A stretch of 64,000 nucleotides of DNA from Betaproteobacteria bacterium (GCA_025361165.1 JANYAU010000115.1:836-64835), one strand, 5' to 3'; counted from the stretch's first letter, positions 1 to 62,154 are shown. The notes: generated by a model not told the origin, from the letters alone. A program made the numbers and translations.

Positions 1-304
1 AAAGCGAAACAAATCTCAGCAACAAAAAAATTAGCTTCCCAATTTCGTTGCGAATTGATTCACTATTAAGATCATCTTTTGTTAGAAGGCGCTTATTAAC
101 AAGGAACCCATATCGAAATACGCCTGCCATTCCCAAAACAAACGCTCCAATAGCAAACAACCCCCAAAAGAGATTCCACATCGGCTGGAACAATTCAGAA
201 AAAGAGCCTTTCAAGCCATCACTTATAAAAAATAGCGACGAGCCTGCAACAATGGTGAAAGAGACCACATGAGAGAGAAGAGTTTTGGCCTGCCCCGATA
301 GCAT
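1..304 (-). CDS. small hydrophobic membrane protein; only the N-terminal 101 codons are visible and the 3' end runs off the window
   Basis: ATG at 304-302 is preceded by AAGGTG. The minus-strand frame stays open to position 2. Translation MLSGQAKTLLSHVVSFTIVAGSSLFFISDGLKGSFSELFQPMWNLFWGLFAIGAFVLGMAGVFRYGF... has hydrophobic spans. The region is AT-rich. It is absent from the ORF track because there is no stop inside the window. Confidence 0.45.
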   Translation of the reverse strand, partial: MLSGQAKTLLSHVVSFTIVAGSSLFFISDGLKGSFSELFQPMWNLFWGLFAIGAFVLGMAGVFRYGFLVNKRLLTKDDLNSESIRNEIGKLIFLLLRFVSL

Positions 305-317
305 AAGAATCACCTTT

Positions 318-530
318 TTATGGACATGTGCAAGGTTGTTTTGATCCTAAATATGCTCCAGCAACGAATCCGAGACCCGCAGCTACTGGATTGGCAAATT
401 TTCCAGTCACAGCAGCTACAGCAACGCCCGCGTATGCTTTCGCGGCGCCTCCACCGGAAGAAATGGGGTTAGACTCGATTTTTCACCCCGCACCACCATT
501 CGCGGCGCTGTTTATTGGTTTTGTCTTCAT
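318..530 (-). pseudogene. Gly/Ala-rich (glycine-zipper / class II bacteriocin-like) small peptide frame interrupted by an in-frame TGA
   Basis: GGGAGAG lies 3 nt upstream of the ATG (530-528). The frame reads MKTKPINSAANGGAG, then TGA (485-483), then continues in the same frame as KIESNPISSGGGAAKAYAGVAVAAVTGKFANPVAAGLGFVAGAYLGSKQPCTCP to TAA (320-318). There is no canonical start codon after the TGA. Confidence 0.3.
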
Positions 531-830
531 GATCTCTCCCTGTGCTTGCATAGTGCTCTTAGCTTTTTCTCTTTCCATCCATTGTGACGAAAAACCGATG
601 GGCCATTTTTTGGCTTCCGATGGTCTCATCATTTCGCAGCCTAAGCGGCTTTGCGCACGGTGAGCTTTATGCGCATGCCAGCCTTGGCCAGCATGTTCGC
701 CAGCGCAAAACAAAAGGGGGCACTTGTATCTCAACAACGCCAACAAATTTGATTTGCGGCGAGTCACCTTTCCAAAAAAGAAATCAAAGCGGAACAATGA
801 AGCGCGTAACGGCGCAGACAGAACCTGCAT
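483..830 (-). CDS. hypothetical ORF whose first 36 codons are paralogous to the 45-codon ORF at 25257-25394
   Basis: AGGGAGAG RBS and ATG at 830. N-terminus MQVLSAPLRASLFRFDFFFGKVTRRKSNLLALLRYK versus MQVLYALLRALSFCFDFFSGKLARIKSNFASLLKYK in copy B. The part after codon 36 has no counterpart in copy B. Confidence 0.3.
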   Translation of the reverse strand: MQVLSAPLRASLFRFDFFFGKVTRRKSNLLALLRYKCPLLFCAGEHAGQGWHAHKAHRAQSRLGCEMMRPSEAKKWPIGFSSQWMEREKAKSTMQAQGEIMKTKPINSAANGGAG

Positions 831-946
831 AATCTCTCCCTTGGATTTGGCGTGCTGCGCGGCCGGATTTCTTAGCGAATCATTTAGCAGCGCGCACGAT
901 GACATTATTCTTGTCCAATGACAAAAGGATTGTCAAGGGCATGATT
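721..946 (-). repeat. copy A of a ~230-bp module (promoter + conserved 5' leader + small-ORF N-terminus); copy B is at 25275-25515
   Basis: Manual alignment shows long shared blocks, for example GATTGTCAA, GCGCACGATGAC, CCTTGGATTTGGCGTG.TGCGCGGCCGG and AAAGAAATCAAAGC.GAAC. Confidence 0.8.
907..936 (-). promoter_or_regulatory. sigma70-like promoter of module copy A
   Basis: On the minus strand, TTGACA (936-931), an 18-nt spacer, then AAGAAT (912-907). Copy B has the same geometry. Confidence 0.4.
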
Positions 947-1040
947 CAGCGGCAGCGAAATCGCTCGCTCCCGGTTGTTTGAAAAAGAGGGGGGGGGTTA
1001 ACCATGCCGTCCAGTACAAGACGGGTGCACAGATGTCCCT

Positions 1041-19140: not shown

Positions 19141-20775
19141 ATGCGCGCTGCTACTTTATTTGTAAAATGCCTGGAAGCAGAAGGCGTGGAATTTATCTAC
19201 GGTATCCCTGGCGAGGAAAACCTCGACATCATGGATGCGTTGTTGGATTCGCCCATCACTTTTATCACCACGCGCCACGAGCAGGGTGCCGCCTTCATGG
19301 CGGATGTGCAAGGCCGCCTCACCGGCAAAGCCGGGGTGTGCTTGGCCACCCTCGGGCCAGGTGCGACCAATCTGGTCACTGGCGTCGCCGATGCCAATAT
19401 GGATCACGCGCCGGTAGTCGCCATCGCGGGCCAAGCGCCGACCAATCGCCTACATAAGGAATCGCACCAAGTGCTGGATCTGGTAAATTTATTCCAGCCT
19501 ATCACGCGCTACGCCTCGCAAATTCTCAACCCCGAGGTGATTCCCGAGGTGGTGCGCAAGGCGTTCAAGGTAGCGCAGGGCGCGAAGCCCGGTGCAGCAT
19601 TTATCGACTTTCCCGAGAACATCGCAAGAATTGAAGATATCGGTCTCAAACCGATTCTGCCACGTCCGGTTACCACGCCCTATCCCTCCGAAGTGCGGCT
19701 GGTGGCGGTGGCGAAGATCATCAGCGACGCCGAGTTCCCGCTGATACTTGCAGGCAATGGGCTGGTGCGCGCCAATGCTTGCGATGCTTTGGTGGCTTTT
19801 GCTGAAAAACTCAATATCCCGGTCGCCACCACTTTTATGGCGAAGGGTGCGATACCTTCTTCGCATCCCTTGAGCTTGGGTACGGTCGGATTGCAAGCGC
19901 ACGACTACGTTTCCTGCGGTTTCGACCGCGCGGATGTGGTGATCTGCGTCGGCTACGACTTAGTGGAATATCCGCCTAAGTTGTGGCACCAAACCGGCGA
20001 CCGCAAAATCATCCACATCGATACGCTGCCAGCGGAAGTCGATGCTTATTACAATCTTACTGACGGCGTACTGGGAGACTTTAATGTCACGTTGTCGGAG
20101 CTTGCGAAGCGTGCGTCGCACCACCGCAACAATGGGTATGAGAGTCTGCGCACCGCGATTCTGCATGAGTTGCATGATATGGATGACGACCCGGGATTCC
20201 CAGTCAAACCGCAGCGGATTATCGCCGACTTGCGCCGCGCTTTAGCCCCGGACGACATCGTGATTTGCGACGTGGGCGCGCACAAAATGTGGATGGCGCG
20301 TATGTTTCCGTGCGAAAAGCCCAACACCTGCATCATTTCTAATGGTTTTGCCAGCATGGGTATCGCGGTACCCGGCGCGGTTGCCGCCAAACTGAATTTT
20401 CCGAATCGCAAAGTCGTCGCGGTCACGGGCGATGCCGGGTTCCTGATGAACTCGCAGGAAATAGAAACTGCCATGCGGGTACAAACGCCGTTCGTGATTT
20501 TAATTTGGAACGACGCGAGCTATGGCTTGATCGAATGGAAGCAGCAAAATAATTTTGGACGCTTATCCAACGTAAAATTCAACAACCCCGATTTTGTGAA
20601 GTACGCAGAAGCCTTCGGCGCCACCGGCTACCGCATCACCCGCGCCGAAGATTTGTTACCCACGCTGACCCAGGCGCTGCAACAAAATACAGTGACGATT
20701 ATCGATTGCCCGGTGGATTACAGCGAAAATTTAAAGCTGACCGCCAAATTGGGTGAGATGGTTTGTCCGATTTAG
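19141..20775 (+). CDS. thiamine-diphosphate-dependent acetolactate synthase-like enzyme (large subunit type)
   Basis: 544 aa with N-terminal GIPGEENLDIMDAL...RHEQGAAFMA and a ThDP motif GDAGFLMNSQEIET. No small-subunit gene is adjacent. Confidence 0.88.
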   Translation: MRAATLFVKCLEAEGVEFIYGIPGEENLDIMDALLDSPITFITTRHEQGAAFMADVQGRLTGKAGVCLATLGPGATNLVTGVADANMDHAPVVAIAGQAPTNRLHKESHQVLDLVNLFQPITRYASQILNPEVIPEVVRKAFKVAQGAKPGAAFIDFPENIARIEDIGLKPILPRPVTTPYPSEVRLVAVAKIISDAEFPLILAGNGLVRANACDALVAFAEKLNIPVATTFMAKGAIPSSHPLSLGTVGLQAHDYVSCGFDRADVVICVGYDLVEYPPKLWHQTGDRKIIHIDTLPAEVDAYYNLTDGVLGDFNVTLSELAKRASHHRNNGYESLRTAILHELHDMDDDPGFPVKPQRIIADLRRALAPDDIVICDVGAHKMWMARMFPCEKPNTCIISNGFASMGIAVPGAVAAKLNFPNRKVVAVTGDAGFLMNSQEIETAMRVQTPFVILIWNDASYGLIEWKQQNNFGRLSNVKFNNPDFVKYAEAFGATGYRITRAEDLLPTLTQALQQNTVTIIDCPVDYSENLKLTAKLGEMVCPI

Positions 20776-22928: not shown

Positions 22929-23693
22929 TCAGTCGAAAAACCCAGCTTCCACCAGTTCCAGTACAAGTTTCGCATAGTCCCGTGCACCGGGACTGGACGG
23001 CGCGAAGGCAAACACGTCTTTGGCCTGGGTGGGGCTAGCGGCTAGCGCGACGTTTTCCACTACCCGGGTTTCGCACAATTGCGCGCCATAGCGCTTTTTG
23101 AGTTGGTCGTAAATATCGAACGACAGCTTGCGCCGGGCATCGAAGCGGGTAAGCAAGATGCGTTTTTCGATTTTGCGGTTGAGCGGGCCTTCCAGGGCTT
23201 TCAGTGCCAAATCGAGTTTGTTCACGCTTTGCAGCGATAAAAAATCCGCCGACACGGGCACCAGTATCCGGTCTGCCGCCAGCACTGCGTTCAGCGATAA
23301 CACGCCCAGCGTGGGGCAGCAATCGATCAAAATCGGCACGCCTTGCTGTGCCAGCGATTCATCTAATCCAGTTTTTAATTTGCGTGCGGCGGCGGCGTTT
23401 TTGCTCTGCAGGGCTTCGATTTTGGAGAGCTCCATATGCGCCGGAATCATGCGCACACCGGACTCCAGTTCCCGCATGAGTGCGGGCAAGGGGGTATTGT
23501 CGCGAAAAAAAGCAGCAATGGATTCGTCGCCGGTAATATGGGTGACGCCTAGAGTAAGGGTCAGGTGCGCTTGCGGGTCGAGATCGATGGCGATTGGGCG
23601 TTTACCCATGCGCGCGAGACCTGCTGTCAGATTAAGCGTGGTGGTGGTTTTGCCGACACCGCCTTTTTGATTGAAGATCGCGATGACGGCCAC
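22929..23693 (-). CDS. ParA/MinD-family ATPase (orphan, chemotaxis-cluster type)
   Basis: 254 aa with the deviant Walker A NQKGGVGKTTT. GTG start with a GGAG RBS. Confidence 0.9.
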   Translation of the reverse strand: MAVIAIFNQKGGVGKTTTTLNLTAGLARMGKRPIAIDLDPQAHLTLTLGVTHITGDESIAAFFRDNTPLPALMRELESGVRMIPAHMELSKIEALQSKNAAAARKLKTGLDESLAQQGVPILIDCCPTLGVLSLNAVLAADRILVPVSADFLSLQSVNKLDLALKALEGPLNRKIEKRILLTRFDARRKLSFDIYDQLKKRYGAQLCETRVVENVALAASPTQAKDVFAFAPSSPGARDYAKLVLELVEAGFFD

Positions 23694-23757
23694 GGACTAC
23701 TCCAGCGGAGGGATGGGTGCGCGATGGCGCGATAGAACGGCTTGTTTCAGCTGTTCG

Positions 23758-23900
23758 CACAAAATAAAGTTGGATCGTAAAAACGCGTTAAGTAATTGAC
23801 TCTTATTAACCAGTATTAAATTCGGGAAAAATAAAGTTGTATCGTGAAGCGGCGATCTGATCACAAATATCCCTGGAAACACAAAATAAAGTTGTACCGT
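23758..23900 (+). repeat. three direct 21-bp repeats CACAAAATAAAGTTGKAYCGT (TnsB-binding-site-like), in a Tn7L-type arrangement
   Basis: Copies at 23758-23778, 23825-23845 (first 3 nt differ) and 23880-23900. They resemble the Tn7 sites GACAAAATAGTTGGGAAC and GACAATAAAGTCTTAAAC. Confidence 0.75.
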
Positions 23901-23962
23901 GGCCGTAAGAATAATCTACTTCCTGATGTGGTAGTTACCTGCCTGAAAACAAAATTTCTATT

Positions 23963-24124
23963 GAGCCGGCATCCGGGGTAAATGGCCTATCGGCCATTAA
24001 ACATAACCACGACTTATGCAAAGTGCGGGCAGTCGCCAATCGAGTTGGCTTGATGCCCGCACCGCTCTGCGTCCTCCGGGTTCGCATAAGGGATGGTTAT
24101 GTCTGGTGCCCCGGATGCCTGCTC
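23963..24124. other. 160-nt multi-stem palindromic element (candidate structured RNA or MITE-like repeat)
   Basis: Outer stem 23963-23978 / 24109-24124 (15 of 16 bp). Hairpin 23981-23998. Stem 24001-24009 / 24094-24102 plus 24013-24019 / 24084-24090. Stem 24023-24030 / 24055-24062 enclosing 24035-24039 / 24045-24049. Confidence 0.5.
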
Positions 24125-24207
24125 GCACGCAAGACTTTGCCAGGCAGTATGTACGTGGCCATGGCGCATACCGTCGCCGCGTTAGGTTTTAAATGCTAGC
24201 GCTCATC

Positions 24208-24558
24208 TTAGCTACGTGCGGCCCCCTTCGCCGAACGCGCCATCTTCCCCAGCCACGAAAAAAGCATCGCAACCAAGGTCGGCAGATAGAACCACCATAT
24301 AGTTCCAAATATTCCATGAACAATATGAGGAAGCCACGTACGCAAGAATGCGCCTGCAGGCAGTGTATCGAGAATCCTCTCCAAGCCGACTATCACCGCA
24401 TAGGAGACAGGGAAGTCTATGGGCAACCAAAGAGCCCAAAGTAAGCGCGCCTGGCCATCTCCGGATGCGAGGTAGATGACGAACAAGCTAAACATCAATA
24501 GGTGAATTCCAGACAAGACCTGACACCGCGCTTTTGTGCGCGTTGGGCTGCATTTCAT
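24208..24558 (-). CDS. small integral membrane protein (cargo of the mini-element)
   Basis: 116-codon ORF with about 3 hydrophobic spans (LLMFSLFVIYL, FPVSYAVIVGL, IFGTIWWFYLPTLVAMLF). No family recognised. Confidence 0.5.
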   Translation of the reverse strand: MKCSPTRTKARCQVLSGIHLLMFSLFVIYLASGDGQARLLWALWLPIDFPVSYAVIVGLERILDTLPAGAFLRTWLPHIVHGIFGTIWWFYLPTLVAMLFSWLGKMARSAKGAARS

Positions 24559-24724
24559 TTAGCCCAACCTACGCGGGCTGAGACAGCAACGCCCGCAAGG
24601 GCGGGCGTTGGGTGAGATTTTTTATTCTTCAAATAGCAATAACACAATAACCAAAGCCTGACCCTCTTTCTCTCTTTCTTTTGACCCTTTCTGTTGCCAC
24701 AGCGGAGCGACCGGGGTTTTATTT

Positions 24725-25183
24725 CTAAAAGGAAGAACGGCGTTGACTGGCATCGGGGACGAGCCATGTGTCGATGATTTTGCCAACAACTGCAGGTGCC
24801 GCCACAAGCAATAACATATTGAGAAGATGAGGTGGGCTACGAAATATGCCGAAATAGACCAATACGTAATTGTGGCCATACGGATTATAGATGTAGTAGT
24901 AACCGAATATGGCCAACCCAATGAGCAAGCCTAGCCTGTAAAATAAGGCACGAACTATGGCGTAATTCAATAAGAAGAAGAAAGCGATATTTGCAGTTAC
25001 CGCGAGCAACATACGGGATATATACACAAGGTCTGACCTACCCTCACCCCAAAGCGCTACTTCTAATGCTAAGAGTTGCCGCATGATCACCACATAAGCC
25101 ACAGCAAGAGCCAGCTGAATGATGATCTGAATAGATGGATTGTTTAGCCGTGTGTGAGTCATATGCATAGCGATTTTTGGCAT
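24725..25183 (-). CDS. small integral membrane protein (cargo of the mini-element)
   Basis: 152-codon ORF with about 4 hydrophobic spans and visibly AT-rich codon usage relative to neighbouring core genes. No family recognised. Confidence 0.55.
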   Translation of the reverse strand: MPKIAMHMTHTRLNNPSIQIIIQLALAVAYVVIMRQLLALEVALWGEGRSDLVYISRMLLAVTANIAFFFLLNYAIVRALFYRLGLLIGLAIFGYYYIYNPYGHNYVLVYFGIFRSPPHLLNMLLLVAAPAVVGKIIDTWLVPDASQRRSSF

Positions 25184-25256
25184 TCTAATAAAATATGGTC
25201 TAGTTTGAACTTTGCCGCCTTAACTAGCCCTCGATATATCGGAAAAACTAGTATGA

Positions 25257-25394
25257 TCATAAAGCGGTAGGGGTCACATCTTGTATCTTGTATTTTAACA
25301 ACGATGCAAAATTTGATTTGATGCGAGCTAGCTTGCCGGAAAAGAAATCAAAGCAGAACGATAGCGCGCGCAGCAGCGCATACAAAACTTGCAT
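25257..25394 (-). CDS. 45-codon ORF, paralog of the N-terminus of ORF 483-830
   Basis: GGGGAGGG RBS, ATG 25394, TGA 25259-25257. Sequence MQVLYALLRALSFCFDFFSGKLARIKSNFASLLKYKIQDVTPTAL. By manual alignment, 23 of the first 36 residues match copy A, and six of those identical residues use synonymous codons. Confidence 0.4.
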   Translation of the reverse strand: MQVLYALLRALSFCFDFFSGKLARIKSNFASLLKYKIQDVTPTAL

Positions 25395-25515
25395 GATCCC
25401 TCCCCTGGATTTGGCGTGATGCGCGGCCGGGCTTCTTTTTGCTGAACCGGGTGGCCAGTGCGCACGATGACGTTATTCTCGGGCCATGCCGACGGGATTG
25501 TCAATGGGGATGATT
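25275..25515 (-). repeat. copy B of the promoter/leader/small-ORF module (copy A is at 721-946)
   Basis: See copy A. It lies inside the mini-element, reading inward from the glmS-proximal end. Confidence 0.8.
25475..25504 (-). promoter_or_regulatory. sigma70-like promoter of module copy B
   Basis: On the minus strand, TTGACA (25504-25499), an 18-nt spacer, then GAGAAT (25480-25475). Confidence 0.4.
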
Positions 25516-25621
25516 TAGGTATATTGTCAAAGAACAGCGTGTGAGACCGTTCTCTATCAATCGCTCAGGGAATTTTGCAAGAGGCGCAAGGAATAAAGGG
25601 GCTCTTGGCACCCCTTGGCCT

Positions 25622-25648
25622 ACGCGCCAACTTTATTTTGCGTCAACA
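25622..25648 (-). repeat. glmS-proximal terminal repeat of the mini-element (TGT terminus plus one intact TnsB-site-like repeat)
   Basis: The reverse complement reads TGTTGACGCAAAATAAAGTTGGCGCGT. A degenerate second site is at 25562-25580 and an oppositely oriented degenerate copy at 25586-25608. Confidence 0.7.
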
Positions 25649-25673
25649 AATCAGCTTCATACGCGCAACGAGT

Positions 25674-27500
25674 TTACTCCACCGTCACCGACTTGGCCAA
25701 GTTGCGCGGCTTGTCCACATCGGTGCCTTTTTTCAGCGCCGCATGATAGGCCAGCAACTGCACCGGCACCGCATGCACCACCGGCGACAACACGCCCATG
25801 TGGCGCGGCGTGCGGATCACGTGCACGCCTTCGGCTTCACCGAAGTGGCTGTCGAGATCGGCGAACACATACAACTCGCCGCCGCGCGCATGCACTTCCT
25901 GCATATTCGATTTTACTTTTTCCAACAACACGTCGTTGGGGGCGATCACCACCACCGGCATATCGCTGTCCACGAGCGCCAGCGGGCCATGCTTCAACTC
26001 GCCGGCGGGATAGGCTTCGGCGTGGATATAGGAAATTTCCTTGAGCTTGAGCGCGCCTTCGAGTGCGATCGGATAATGCAGTCCGCGCCCGAGAAACAGC
26101 GCGTGTTCTTTATGCGCAAAGCGCTCCGCCCAAGCTTGAATTTGCGGCTCCAAATTCAACGCATGTTGCACGCTGCCGGGCAGATGGCGCAAGGCCTCGA
26201 GGTGATCATGTTCTTGCTGCGGCGTGAGCCGGCCGCGGGTTTTCGCTAGCACCAGGGTCAGGATGAACAAGGCCGCCAATTGCGTGGTGAAAGCCTTGGT
26301 CGAGGCCACGCCGATCTCGGCCCCGGCGCGGGTGAAGAACGTCAACTTGGAGGCGCGTGGAATGGCGCTTTCGCGTACGTTACAAATCGAGAGCGTCTTG
26401 GTGTGGCCCAATTCTTTGGCGCGCTTTAAGGCTTCCATGGTGTCCAGCGTCTCGCCGGATTGCGAAATAGTGACGATGAGCTGCTTCGGATTCGGGATCG
26501 AATCGCGGTAGCGGTATTCATGTCCCAGTTCGACGTTGCACGGGATTTTTGCGATCGATTCCACCCATAAGCGCGCAACTTGTCCGGCGTAAAAACTGGT
26601 GCCCGCGGCGAGTATCAGCACGCTGTCCGCATCGCGCAACACCTCCTCGGCATCCGGACCGAACAAAGCTGGCGTCACGCCCTCGGCCAATACGCCTTCC
26701 AAGGTATCGGTCAGCGCGCGCGGCTGCTCGTGGATTTCTTTTTGCATGTAGTGCTGATACGGGCCGAGATCGACCGCATCGGCGGAAATTTCGGAGATGC
26801 GCACCGGGCGAGTGACAGCGTGGCCATCGCGATCGACGATGGTGATGGACTCGCTCGTGACTAAGGCCACGTCGCCTTCATCCAGATAGATGACCTTGCG
26901 CGTGGCGGAAATAATCGCGGAGACATCAGAGGCGAAAAAGTTTTCACCTTCTCCTACGCCGATCAGCAAGGGGCAGCCGACGCGCGCGCAACATACGATG
27001 CCGGGCATCTGTGGCGTGACCACACCAATGGCGTAGGCGCCCTCAAGCTCGCTCACAGCCTGGCGCGTAGCCGCGAACAAATCGTTCGATTGCTTGAAAT
27101 AATAATGAATCAGATGCGCGATGACTTCGGTATCGGTTTGCGACTCGAACACATAACCCAGCGCTTTCAAGCGCGCGCGCTGTTCCTCGTGATTTTCGAT
27201 GATGCCGTTATGCACCACGGCGATTTCGTTTTGCGAAAAATGCGGATGCGCGTTGTCTTCAGTGACGCCGCCGTGAGTGGCCCAGCGCGTGTGGCCGATG
27301 CCGATGAAGCCGGTCAATTGCTGCGCTTTGGCCTCGTTTTCCATTTCCACGACGCGCCCTACGCGCCGCACGCGCTGCAAGCCGCCATTGAGTACGGCGA
27401 TACCGGCGGAATCGTAGCCGCGGTATTCGAGGCGCTTTAAGCCTTCGATCAAAACCGGAACCACATCGCGCTTGGCGATGGCGCCAACTATGCCGCACAT
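25674..27500 (-). CDS. glmS: glutamine--fructose-6-phosphate aminotransferase
   Basis: 608 aa with an MCGIVG N-terminal nucleophile, SIS domains and the C-terminal KSVTVE. Confidence 0.98.
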
Positions 27501-61131: not shown

Positions 61132-62154
61132 TTAGGGGCGCACCGGCTGGGCGCGCTGGGCCATGGTTTCCGACAAGGCTATTTTACCGCTTTCATCCAC
61201 GCGCATCGCGGCTTTGATGCCAAGGCGCAGGAGTTGGGTTTCCCAGCCGCTTGCATCGGCGATAAAGCCGGGCTTGGACGCAACATCCGAGAGCACGCCG
61301 GCATGGGGCCCGGGCGGTGCAAGCACGGTCAACGATTGGGTCTGGGATGCAGGATAGCCGGTGCGCGGATCGATGATGTGACAATAGCGCTTGCCATCAA
61401 GTTCAAAAAAACGCTGGTAATCGCCGGAAGTGCCAATCGCTTCGCCGTCACGCAAATCCAATTCGACGATTGCGCCCGGCTGACGCGGATGTTGCACCCC
61501 GATATGCCAAGGGTGCGCCCCGTGTTGCCCCAGCGCAATGAGATTGCCGCCGATGTTGACCAGCGCATTGTGGATGCCGTGGGCGCGCAAAATTTGCAGC
61601 GCATGATCCAACGCCAATCCCTTAGCATAGCCGCCAAAATCGAGTTGTACCGCGCGATTGCGACTGCTTGCCCAGCCCGCCGCGTCGATGCTGATATCGC
61701 TCATGCGTGGGTTAGCTTGGACTAAGGCCACGATTTTTTCCGGCGCCGGTTTGACCGGCTTGAACTCGTCGGATTGAAACCCCCACAAGGCAATCAACTG
61801 GCCAATGGCAGGGTTGAATAAATTATCCGAAGCTTTTGCATAATGGGTCGCGTCGCGAATCGCCGCCGCCAATTCGGGCGAGATCCGGTGTCGCTCGCCA
61901 CGGGCGAACGCCGCATTGAGTTCGGTCACCGGGCTCGGCTTCCAAGCGTGAAACGCATGGTGCAGTCGGTCGAATTCTTGCAGCACCGCGGCGCTGGCAG
62001 CGCGGGCTTGAGCGTTATTCACGCCGTAGATGCTGATCTCGACTTGGGTGCCGAAGACGAAGGATTGTTGCTGGTAGAGCGCTTCTTTGCTACAGCCACT
62101 GAAAGCCACGCACATGAACAAGGAAAAAATTGTGGTTAAAACGCCTTTCAGCAT
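61132..62154 (-). CDS. apbE: FAD:protein FMN transferase ApbE (lipoprotein)
   Basis: 340 aa with lipobox AFSGC and ApbE motifs (GGYAKG, TSGDYQR). Confidence 0.92.
   Translation of the reverse strand: MLKGVLTTIFSLFMCVAFSGCSKEALYQQQSFVFGTQVEISIYGVNNAQARAASAAVLQEFDRLHHAFHAWKPSPVTELNAAFARGERHRISPELAAAIRDATHYAKASDNLFNPAIGQLIALWGFQSDEFKPVKPAPEKIVALVQANPRMSDISIDAAGWASSRNRAVQLDFGGYAKGLALDHALQILRAHGIHNALVNIGGNLIALGQHGAHPWHIGVQHPRQPGAIVELDLRDGEAIGTSGDYQRFFELDGKRYCHIIDPRTGYPASQTQSLTVLAPPGPHAGVLSDVASKPGFIADASGWETQLLRLGIKAAMRVDESGKIALSETMAQRAQPVRP

Follow-up and report, generated by a model that had tools for sequence, protein, structure and literature searches.

A probable deletion remnant of a Tn7-family transposon downstream of glmS in an uncultured betaproteobacterium

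Tn7 inserts into attTn7 downstream of glmS, with its right end proximal to the gene (PMC2918618). Tn7-like elements can be degraded by deletion at their attachment sites, as at nrdB and comM in Acinetobacter baumannii, while a working mini-Tn7 keeps ~70 bp or more of the right end and immobile mini-elements can give strong target immunity (PMC11014353). A natural analogue of transposase-less cargo held between transposon ends is offered by the Tn3-derived inverted-repeat miniature elements (TIMEs) (PMC4133298). For Tn7 itself, the searchable literature, including a 2024 review of prokaryotic miniature transposable elements with inverted repeats (MITEs), yielded no description of natural miniature or MITE-like derivatives, an absence that is weak given the incomplete coverage. 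Here we describe a 1,897-bp segment (23752-25648) between glmS and a parA-like gene in a 64,000-nucleotide stretch of DNA from a Betaproteobacteria bacterium (GCA_025361165.1 JANYAU010000115.1:836-64835); this whole stretch is referred to as the window. A first-pass annotation, made from the sequence alone, had read the segment as a Tn7-like element devoid of transposition genes that was either mobilized in trans or left behind as a deletion fossil. We consider it probable that the segment is an internally deleted, likely immobile Tn7-family fossil. Decayed mobile elements are a known class, and degraded Tn7-like remnants are already on record.

Insertion downstream of glmS

The target gene glmS (25674-27500, minus strand) is a 608-aa open reading frame (ORF) recognized by the gene order atp-glmU-glmS in relatives, where the protein has Pfam GATase and SIS domains. 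Its TAA stop codon lies at 25676-25674, as first annotated, and its last 87 nt share about 82% identity with the 3′ end of Escherichia coli glmS, a conserved stretch that is presumed to be the recognition region for TnsD/TniQ. The flanking host gene on the other side (22929-23693, minus strand) encodes a parA-like ATPase of 254 aa with the Pfam domains AAA_31 and CbiA, and is likewise placed by synteny. The two genes are separated by 1,980 nt in the window, and the GC content is 41-53% in the element versus 55-60% in the flanks.

Relatives with the same gene pair provide the empty site that the first-pass annotation had proposed looking for. The gap between glmS and parA is 70 bp in the closest of them (L093 in our numbering of fetched loci; ParA 93% identical) and 76 bp in two further groups (L008-L010, ParA 91% identical; L005-L007, ParA 90% identical and including one NCBI metagenome-assembled genome (MAG)). 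In these relatives the spacer is uninterrupted and free of the repeats described below, and the segment is therefore a lineage-specific insertion. The empty sites examined at the junction (L005, L008 and L093) contain GCTGA only once, exactly at the position of the joined junction. In the direction of glmS the empty site reads ...GCGTATGAAGCTGAAACAA..., compared with ...GCGTATGAAGCTGA-tt-[TGTTGACGC ... GCGAACA]-GCTGAAACAAG... in the window. The breakpoints located by BLAST are window positions 23752 and 25651, and the size difference from the 76-nt relatives is 1,904 nt, equal to the 1,897 nt between the termini plus 5 and 2 nt. The single GCTGA in the empty sites and this size accounting establish that the TCAGC seen at both sides in the first-pass annotation is a true 5-bp target duplication and not a chance 5-mer. 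One copy (25651-25655; TCAGC on the plus strand, GCTGA in the orientation of glmS) lies 19-23 nt past the stop codon, and the other (23747-23751) abuts the left terminus. The 2-nt offset at the right side was also noted correctly: an extra AA (25649-25650) that occurs in no empty site stands between the right terminus and the duplication. Segment 23752-25648 thus entered about 20 bp beyond the end of glmS and duplicated 5 bp of its target.

Through ParA we found contigs of the same lineage; these are 99.97-100% identical, and all carry the element. Exact-protein look-ups returned no record for glmS or for the version of the 152-aa cargo ORF found here. Two further details of the locus were seen in relatives. 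The empty site of the closest relative (L093:355-375) has a 6-nt deletion (TGAAGC) that takes out some of the pentamer present in duplicate in the window. In a relative at greater distance, with 81% ParA identity (L011:9997-10001), only 3 nt separate the glmS stop from the parA start, which would put the position normally used by Tn7, about 20 bp past glmS, within parA.

Element ends and their relatives

A repeat finder identified a 28-nt inverted repeat (23752-23779 and 25621-25648) whose arms are 82% complementary and both start with TGT (TGTT when read inward), consistent with the terminal inverted repeats first annotated; the element thus has termini of the Tn7 type, 5′-TGT...ACA-3′, inside terminal inverted repeats. 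The left, glmS-distal end (23752-23905, plus strand) consists of the terminus TGTTCGCA and three spaced sites of putative TnsB type at 23759-23780, 23826-23847 and 23881-23902. The right, glmS-proximal end (25620-25648, minus strand) has the terminus TGTTGACG and one such site. When the window was searched for the 19-mer CAAAATAAAGTTGKAYCGT with at most two mismatches, matches were found on the plus strand at 23760, 23827 and 23882, with start-to-start spacings of 67 and 55, and on the minus strand at 25640-25622, against an expectation of 0.02 for the whole 64-kb window as estimated from shuffles. The three spaced direct copies at the distal end and the intact proximal copy reported earlier are therefore well above chance. 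A fifth match at 61635, with three mismatches, is isolated within a housekeeping gene and was rejected as a chance occurrence.

We also scored the window with a site weight matrix trained on the sites of related elements only, leaving the window out of the training set. Exactly four matches reach at least 15 bits in the whole window, and these are the four end sites, the left-end sites at about 30 bits each and the right-end site at 17 bits; an isolated matrix match at 20544, within a housekeeping gene, was also set aside as chance. Degenerate copies had been suggested at the glmS-proximal end, but the matrix finds nothing above chance in 25400-25620, where the best scores fall at the 0.5% background quantile and about one such score is expected per 200 positions. 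Homology to the right ends of related elements stops just after the first site, at ~25620. A closely packed right end of three to four sites, a trait of the Tn7 family that the relatives keep, is thus missing from the window element.

Our reference for Tn7 was the copy on plasmid R721 (L092). The window element resembles it in its TGT/ACA termini, its 5-bp target duplication, its insertion about 20 bp past the glmS stop and the position of the spaced-site (left) end distal to glmS. The sites of the Tn7 left end lie at 9, 73 and 129 (spacing 64 and 56), compared with about 8, 75 and 130 (67 and 55) in the window. In the Tn7 right end and the window ends alike, AATAAAGT is the octamer at nt 12-19 counted from the terminus. 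In contrast to the four sites of the Tn7 right end (9, 29, 50 and 70), the window right end has one. The window element also differs in having no tnsA-E, in its length of 1.9 kb as opposed to 14 kb, and in the two extra nucleotides at the right junction, and its site sequence CAAAATAAAGTTGKAYCGT bears only a loose likeness to the sites of Tn7.

The ends belong to a wider family with the motif CAAAATAAAGTTG, which occurs in beta- and deltaproteobacterial MAGs. It was collected by scanning species-representative genomes and JGI metagenomes for the end motif TGTTNNCNCAAAATAAAGTTG(KNNC), keeping only loci with several sites in a Tn7-like arrangement; most of the 55 matches in the genome scan were lone chance matches in unrelated phyla. 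Three loci (L042, L081 and L089) have left-type ends with sites at the terminus, +67 and +122, which is the spacing of the window, and at L049/L085 the terminal site is accompanied by another at +71. The end relatives closest to the window are L042 (JACPEI010000091.1, 16.9 kb) and L081 (Ga0307374_10005430, 20.6 kb). Right-type ends with three to four contiguous sites at a period of 20-22 nt were found at L084/L091, L086, L074, L077, L083, L090 and L056. Transposition genes connect these ends to the Tn7 family. In a Geobacteraceae MAG (L056), TnsA, TnsB and TnsC are encoded directly inside an end made up of four sites of the form AAAATAAAGTYGGTAACT, with 39% identity to Tn7 TnsA (E = 2e-52) and 33% to Tn7 TnsB (E = 4e-97) in tblastn searches, and at L025 a TnsD-like gene adjoins a left-type end. 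Insertion past glmS recurs as well, with a right-type end 24 nt past a glmS stop codon at L073 and L074. Elements with TGTTNNCNCAAAATAAAGTTG ends (L042, L081, L089, L084/L091, L074, L056 and L025) share with the window the terminal motif and a core 12-mer, in addition to the 67/55 left spacing and the insertion at glmS just mentioned, and they likewise carry defence-, toxin-antitoxin- or immunity-type cargo by their ends. Examples are a Wadjet system in a Nitrosomonadales MAG, where the end adjoins purA (L042), a reverse transcriptase beside the end of L081, and toxin-antitoxin pairs beside those of L074 and L090. Unlike these relatives, the window element has neither three to four contiguous right-end sites nor the tns genes found at L056 and L025. 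Together with the empty sites and the distal spaced end, the presence of TnsA/B/C and TnsD-like genes by ends of this family bears out the earlier assignment to a Tn7-family element in attTn7.

The AA at the right junction has counterparts in this family, where small junction irregularities recur: a 297-bp element at L086 has a 2-nt offset (TG) at its left end, and the spacer at L083 is 6 nt instead of 5 nt (ACTTTT). It may stem from a later indel, from donor-flank nucleotides kept from the TnsA cut, which in Tn7 lies 3 nt outside the 5′ ends, or from a terminus that lies 2 nt further out and has a mutated TGT (TGTGTTGAC to TTTGTTGAC).

Several other arrangements of these ends were noted during the scan. 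At L056:3590-3790 two ends stand back to back 3 nt apart, by the apparent 3′ end of a tRNA gene, and the end of the tnsABC element seems to begin with TGA, not TGT. At L075:2318-2400 the 3′ end of glmS (...KSVTVE, stop) is present a second time, ~1.8 kb downstream of the true one. A 262-aa ORF and a possible small toxin-antitoxin pair, seen by eye, lie between the two, and a left-type end of the same family follows 20 nt past the second copy, which may represent a duplicated attachment site or a decoy. In a Glaciimonas sp. MAG (L030:3915-3937), a lone stretch of 23 nt identical to the window right terminus (T+TGTTGACGCAAAATAAAGTTGG), with no further sites, has a phosphoesterase gene on one side and an outer-membrane efflux gene on the other and may be another isolated end remnant. 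No match to the left end turned up in a BLAST search of 72,556 plasmids, and an end-motif scan of viral contigs gave isolated single matches, without tns genes, that were rejected as chance.

Deletion remnant or mini-element

When Tn7 TnsA-E and the proteins of L056 and L025 were used as tblastn queries, no match appeared in the element, even at E = 10, and none anywhere in the 64-kb window, as the first-pass annotation had concluded for the element itself. No tns pseudogene fragments were found in the element, and the window's large ORFs encode housekeeping functions. With no tns genes in the element or the window, the insertion is a derivative and not an autonomous member of the Tn7 family.

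The account that we think probable starts from an ordinary Tn7-like insertion. Judging from the biology of Tn7, a selector of the TnsD/TniQ type would have bound the conserved glmS 3′ end, and TnsC would have recruited a TnsA/TnsB transposase. The element would then have been pasted past the stop codon with its right end toward glmS, duplicating the pentamer. A deletion within the element, or some rearrangement of like effect, would then have begun just inside the first right-end site, extended across the tns operon and taken right-end sites 2-4 together with tnsA, tnsB, tnsC and tniQ. Left over would be a right terminus of 28 bp and its single site, ~1.7 kb of cargo and the complete three-site left end. 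What is left would have no means of moving by itself. Mobilization by proteins supplied from elsewhere would also be improbable with a one-site right end, and by extrapolation of the requirement in Tn7 the single site makes the element probably immobile. Laboratory mini-Tn7 constructs are similar in placing transposon ends around transposase-less cargo, and they move only with proteins provided in trans, but their right ends span at least about 70-90 bp and include several TnsB sites, compared with ~28 bp and one site in the window element. The remnants in A. baumannii are likewise Tn7-family insertions at dedicated sites that have lost transposition functions or recognizable ends. Unlike them, the window element keeps both termini and the whole left end sharply while all tns genes are gone, and its host is an uncultured betaproteobacterium. 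In its present state the segment parts glmS from parA, puts a terminator-like hairpin after glmS and keeps its cargo genes behind a promoter-like site of their own. The four TnsB-type sites that it leaves in the attachment site could impose target immunity on cognate elements.

Of the two possibilities raised by the first-pass annotation, a deletion fossil fits better than delivery in trans, since the right end has one site and no degenerate copies. Delivery in trans is a possible though unlikely explanation. It holds that the insertion is a non-autonomous mini-Tn7 that never had tns genes here and was brought to the glmS site by a cognate TnsABC and TnsD; the autonomous source may be elsewhere in the genome, on a plasmid or since lost, and the mini-element may still be mobilizable or may have lost its inner right-end sites only later. 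The end family offers precedents. The 297-bp element at L086:4275-4573 (JGI Ga0194063_10006402) is nothing but two ends, left and right, with three sites each; it is flanked on both sides by a CGACC duplication and is a candidate natural Tn7-derived MITE. An element of ~1.1 kb (L090:1-1046; VFSW01 metagenome) has a three-site right end, a higB/higA-like pair as its only genes and left-type sites, again without tns genes. The interiors by the right ends of L084 and L091 are 100% identical over 1,451 nt and have different outer flanks, and one right end is shared over 642 nt, at 96.7% identity, between L074 at glmS and L082 elsewhere, again with different outer flanks; both pairs suggest recent movement. 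The window element, too, has both termini intact (TGT/ACA) and a complete left end. Against delivery in trans, its right end has a single, weaker site where the mini-elements of its relatives keep three, and its right junction is irregular. No second copy was found in the window or in any fetched locus, the only carriers being contigs of the same lineage, and the 64-kb window contains no tns genes that could have supplied the proteins.

A third explanation, which we regard as improbable, is that two related elements inserted in tandem at glmS and that a deletion fused the proximal element's right terminus to the distal element's interior, so that the two ends of the window element never belonged to one transposon. 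Ends standing back to back with about 5-6 nt between them, as expected of repeated insertion at one position, are seen at L056 and at L083:1-230 (VFSW01 metagenome), where the right end of L090 abuts the left end of another element over the 6-nt spacer. The two window termini differ from each other at 3/9 positions (TGTTCGCAC vs TGTTGACGC), compared with 1/9 in the L086 pair, and the site at the right end departs slightly in type from the others (GGCGCGT vs GKAYCGT). There is, however, no internal end or extra duplication within 23752-25648, and left and right ends differ within single Tn7-like elements too. Such an event would in any case be a variant of the deletion remnant and yield the same kind of object.

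The notion that the repeats are host regulatory or centromere-like iterons of the parA-like gene, with the inverted repeat and TCAGC arising by coincidence, is suggested by three direct repeats about 60-190 bp upstream of a ParA-family gene. It is contradicted by the empty sites, since the 1.9 kb, repeats included, is missing altogether from relatives that share this parA (90-93% identity), and is disfavoured to the point of being negligible by the same repeats and spacing next to purA and Wadjet at L042 and at many unrelated loci, and by a fourth, inverted copy exactly at the other boundary beside the duplicated 5-mer.

Several observations weigh against our preferred account of a decayed Tn7-family transposon. 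We found no full-length parent that carries this cargo, and infer the deletion from the remnant. The small elements without tns genes at L086 and L090 have both ends intact and a duplication, from which it follows that the window element could have arrived without tns genes as well. Right ends in L073, L074 and L091 also have no adjacent tnsA, with none present within 3.5-4.5 kb of those of L084, L091, L074 and L082. The number of right-end sites that the TnsB of this family would require is extrapolated from Tn7, and simple cut-and-paste does not account for the 2-nt irregularity at the right junction. In a matrix built from the seven TnsB sites of Tn7 itself, the window sites rank only 4th-14th of 128,000 positions, below the best random match. 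The likeness to the TnsB sites of Tn7, which the first-pass annotation had quoted, is thus not significant alone, and the Tn7 assignment is carried by the family link and the end geometry. Finally, the immunity function that we propose for the cargo is drawn solely from gene neighbourhoods of homologues, and for one of the two genes from the context of an array.

Cargo genes and implications

The cargo was first annotated as a small ORF, two membrane proteins and a structured element, all uncharacterized. In our analysis, the membrane-protein genes resemble orphan toxin-immunity genes. The first, orf116 (24208-24558, minus strand), encodes a small conserved membrane protein with homologues in 113 clusters, of ~110 aa and with invariant H19, W41, D48, P50 and G85. 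At L103:282-5482 (Logan SRR30503386), a gene for a 1,623-aa RHS/YD-shell toxin is followed 15 nt on by P0276, a 104-aa homologue with 56% identity to orf116, in the classical position of an immunity gene. From this neighbour directly after an Rhs toxin gene, orf116 is likely an Rhs-type immunity protein, although no toxin gene lies beside it in the window.

The second gene, orf152 (24725-25183, minus strand), encodes a small membrane protein with four to five helices and is a candidate orphan immunity gene. It is conserved in 18 homologues (43-73% identity) with the invariant motifs YYYxYNPxGH and RSPPHLxNM. Its AlphaFold model is a bundle of four to five helices with a mean predicted local distance difference test (pLDDT) score of 73, and comparison of the model with the PDB gave no fold match. 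At L071, two paralogues of orf152 occur in an array of small unannotated ORFs on the same strand, including a DUF6869 protein. A copy with 97.6% nucleotide identity over window 24756-25176 (L094:927-1785; ENA ERZ27314309) follows a vapBC pair and a sequence homologous to window 460-633 in a context that is not Tn7-like, and orf152 appears to move or recombine as a cassette. Neither orf116 nor orf152 had a family match in Pfam, NCBIfam or PADLOC. Comparative evidence makes it most likely that the two are orphans of polymorphic (Rhs-type) toxin systems and encode immunity proteins. They are small and have no toxin partner, like known orphan immunity genes of polymorphic (Rhs/contact-dependent) toxins; unlike annotated immunity genes, they have no family annotation and are integral membrane proteins.

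The remaining features of the element lie around these genes. Just inside the right end, in the reading direction of glmS, is a terminator-like hairpin (AAGGGGTGCCAAGAGCCCCTT followed by a TATT tail; 25596-25616, minus strand) that may end glmS transcription. Further in is a 232-nt segment with a promoter-like site and leader (25287-25518, minus strand), in which TTGACA-18-GAGAAT occupies 25504-25475. A paralogue of this segment with 76% identity, at window 723-949, lies upstream of other small membrane ORFs. Comparison of the two copies gave no reason to retain a 45-aa ORF (25257-25394) as a gene, as the substitutions have no codon-position bias in either candidate frame, and the leader segment is probably non-coding. 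The paralogue adjoins lipA near the window start, and on the minus strand it is upstream of a 30-aa glycine-rich ORF (410-318) and of an apparent hydrophobic ORF, noted by eye and absent from the output of the ORF tool, that runs off the window start. This region (window 1-660 with 723-949) may be a second islet of small membrane proteins behind a leader of this kind.

Between the two cargo genes, a GC-rich hairpin (CAACGCCCGC...GCGGGCGTTG) followed by a T-run can be read directly at 24578-24616 on the plus strand. Downstream of orf116 is a near-palindromic structured region of 165 nt (23962-24127, both strands) with a minimum free energy of -95 to -98 kcal/mol and a z score of about -8.4 on both strands relative to shuffles. 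Rfam gave no match in the whole window at the gathering threshold or in the element at the E-value threshold, this region included. It had one chance-level match among plasmids and no other copy in the window.

On its own, the locus is a routine case for genome archaeology: a Tn7-like insertion, probably dead, that occupies the classical attachment site. With the empty site, the duplication and both termini readable, it is a clean case of the decay of an attachment-site island to cargo and ends. The wider interest lies in the uncharacterized end family, which seems to yield very small derivatives without tns genes. We think it unlikely, though the elements at L086 and L090 and the shared interiors are candidates, that the TGTTNNCNCAAAATAAAGTTG end family includes truly mobile, transposase-less mini-Tn7 derivatives with the window element among them; if so, it would have been delivered in trans by a cognate TnsABC and TnsD and would be squatting in the glmS site with orphan immunity genes and blocking later insertions by target immunity. 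If its cargo genes do confer immunity, the host would have cause to retain the remnant, which may owe its persistence to them. The small derivatives of this family could serve as natural tests of minimal ends and target immunity in Tn7-like systems and in the CRISPR-associated transposon (CAST) tools derived from them.

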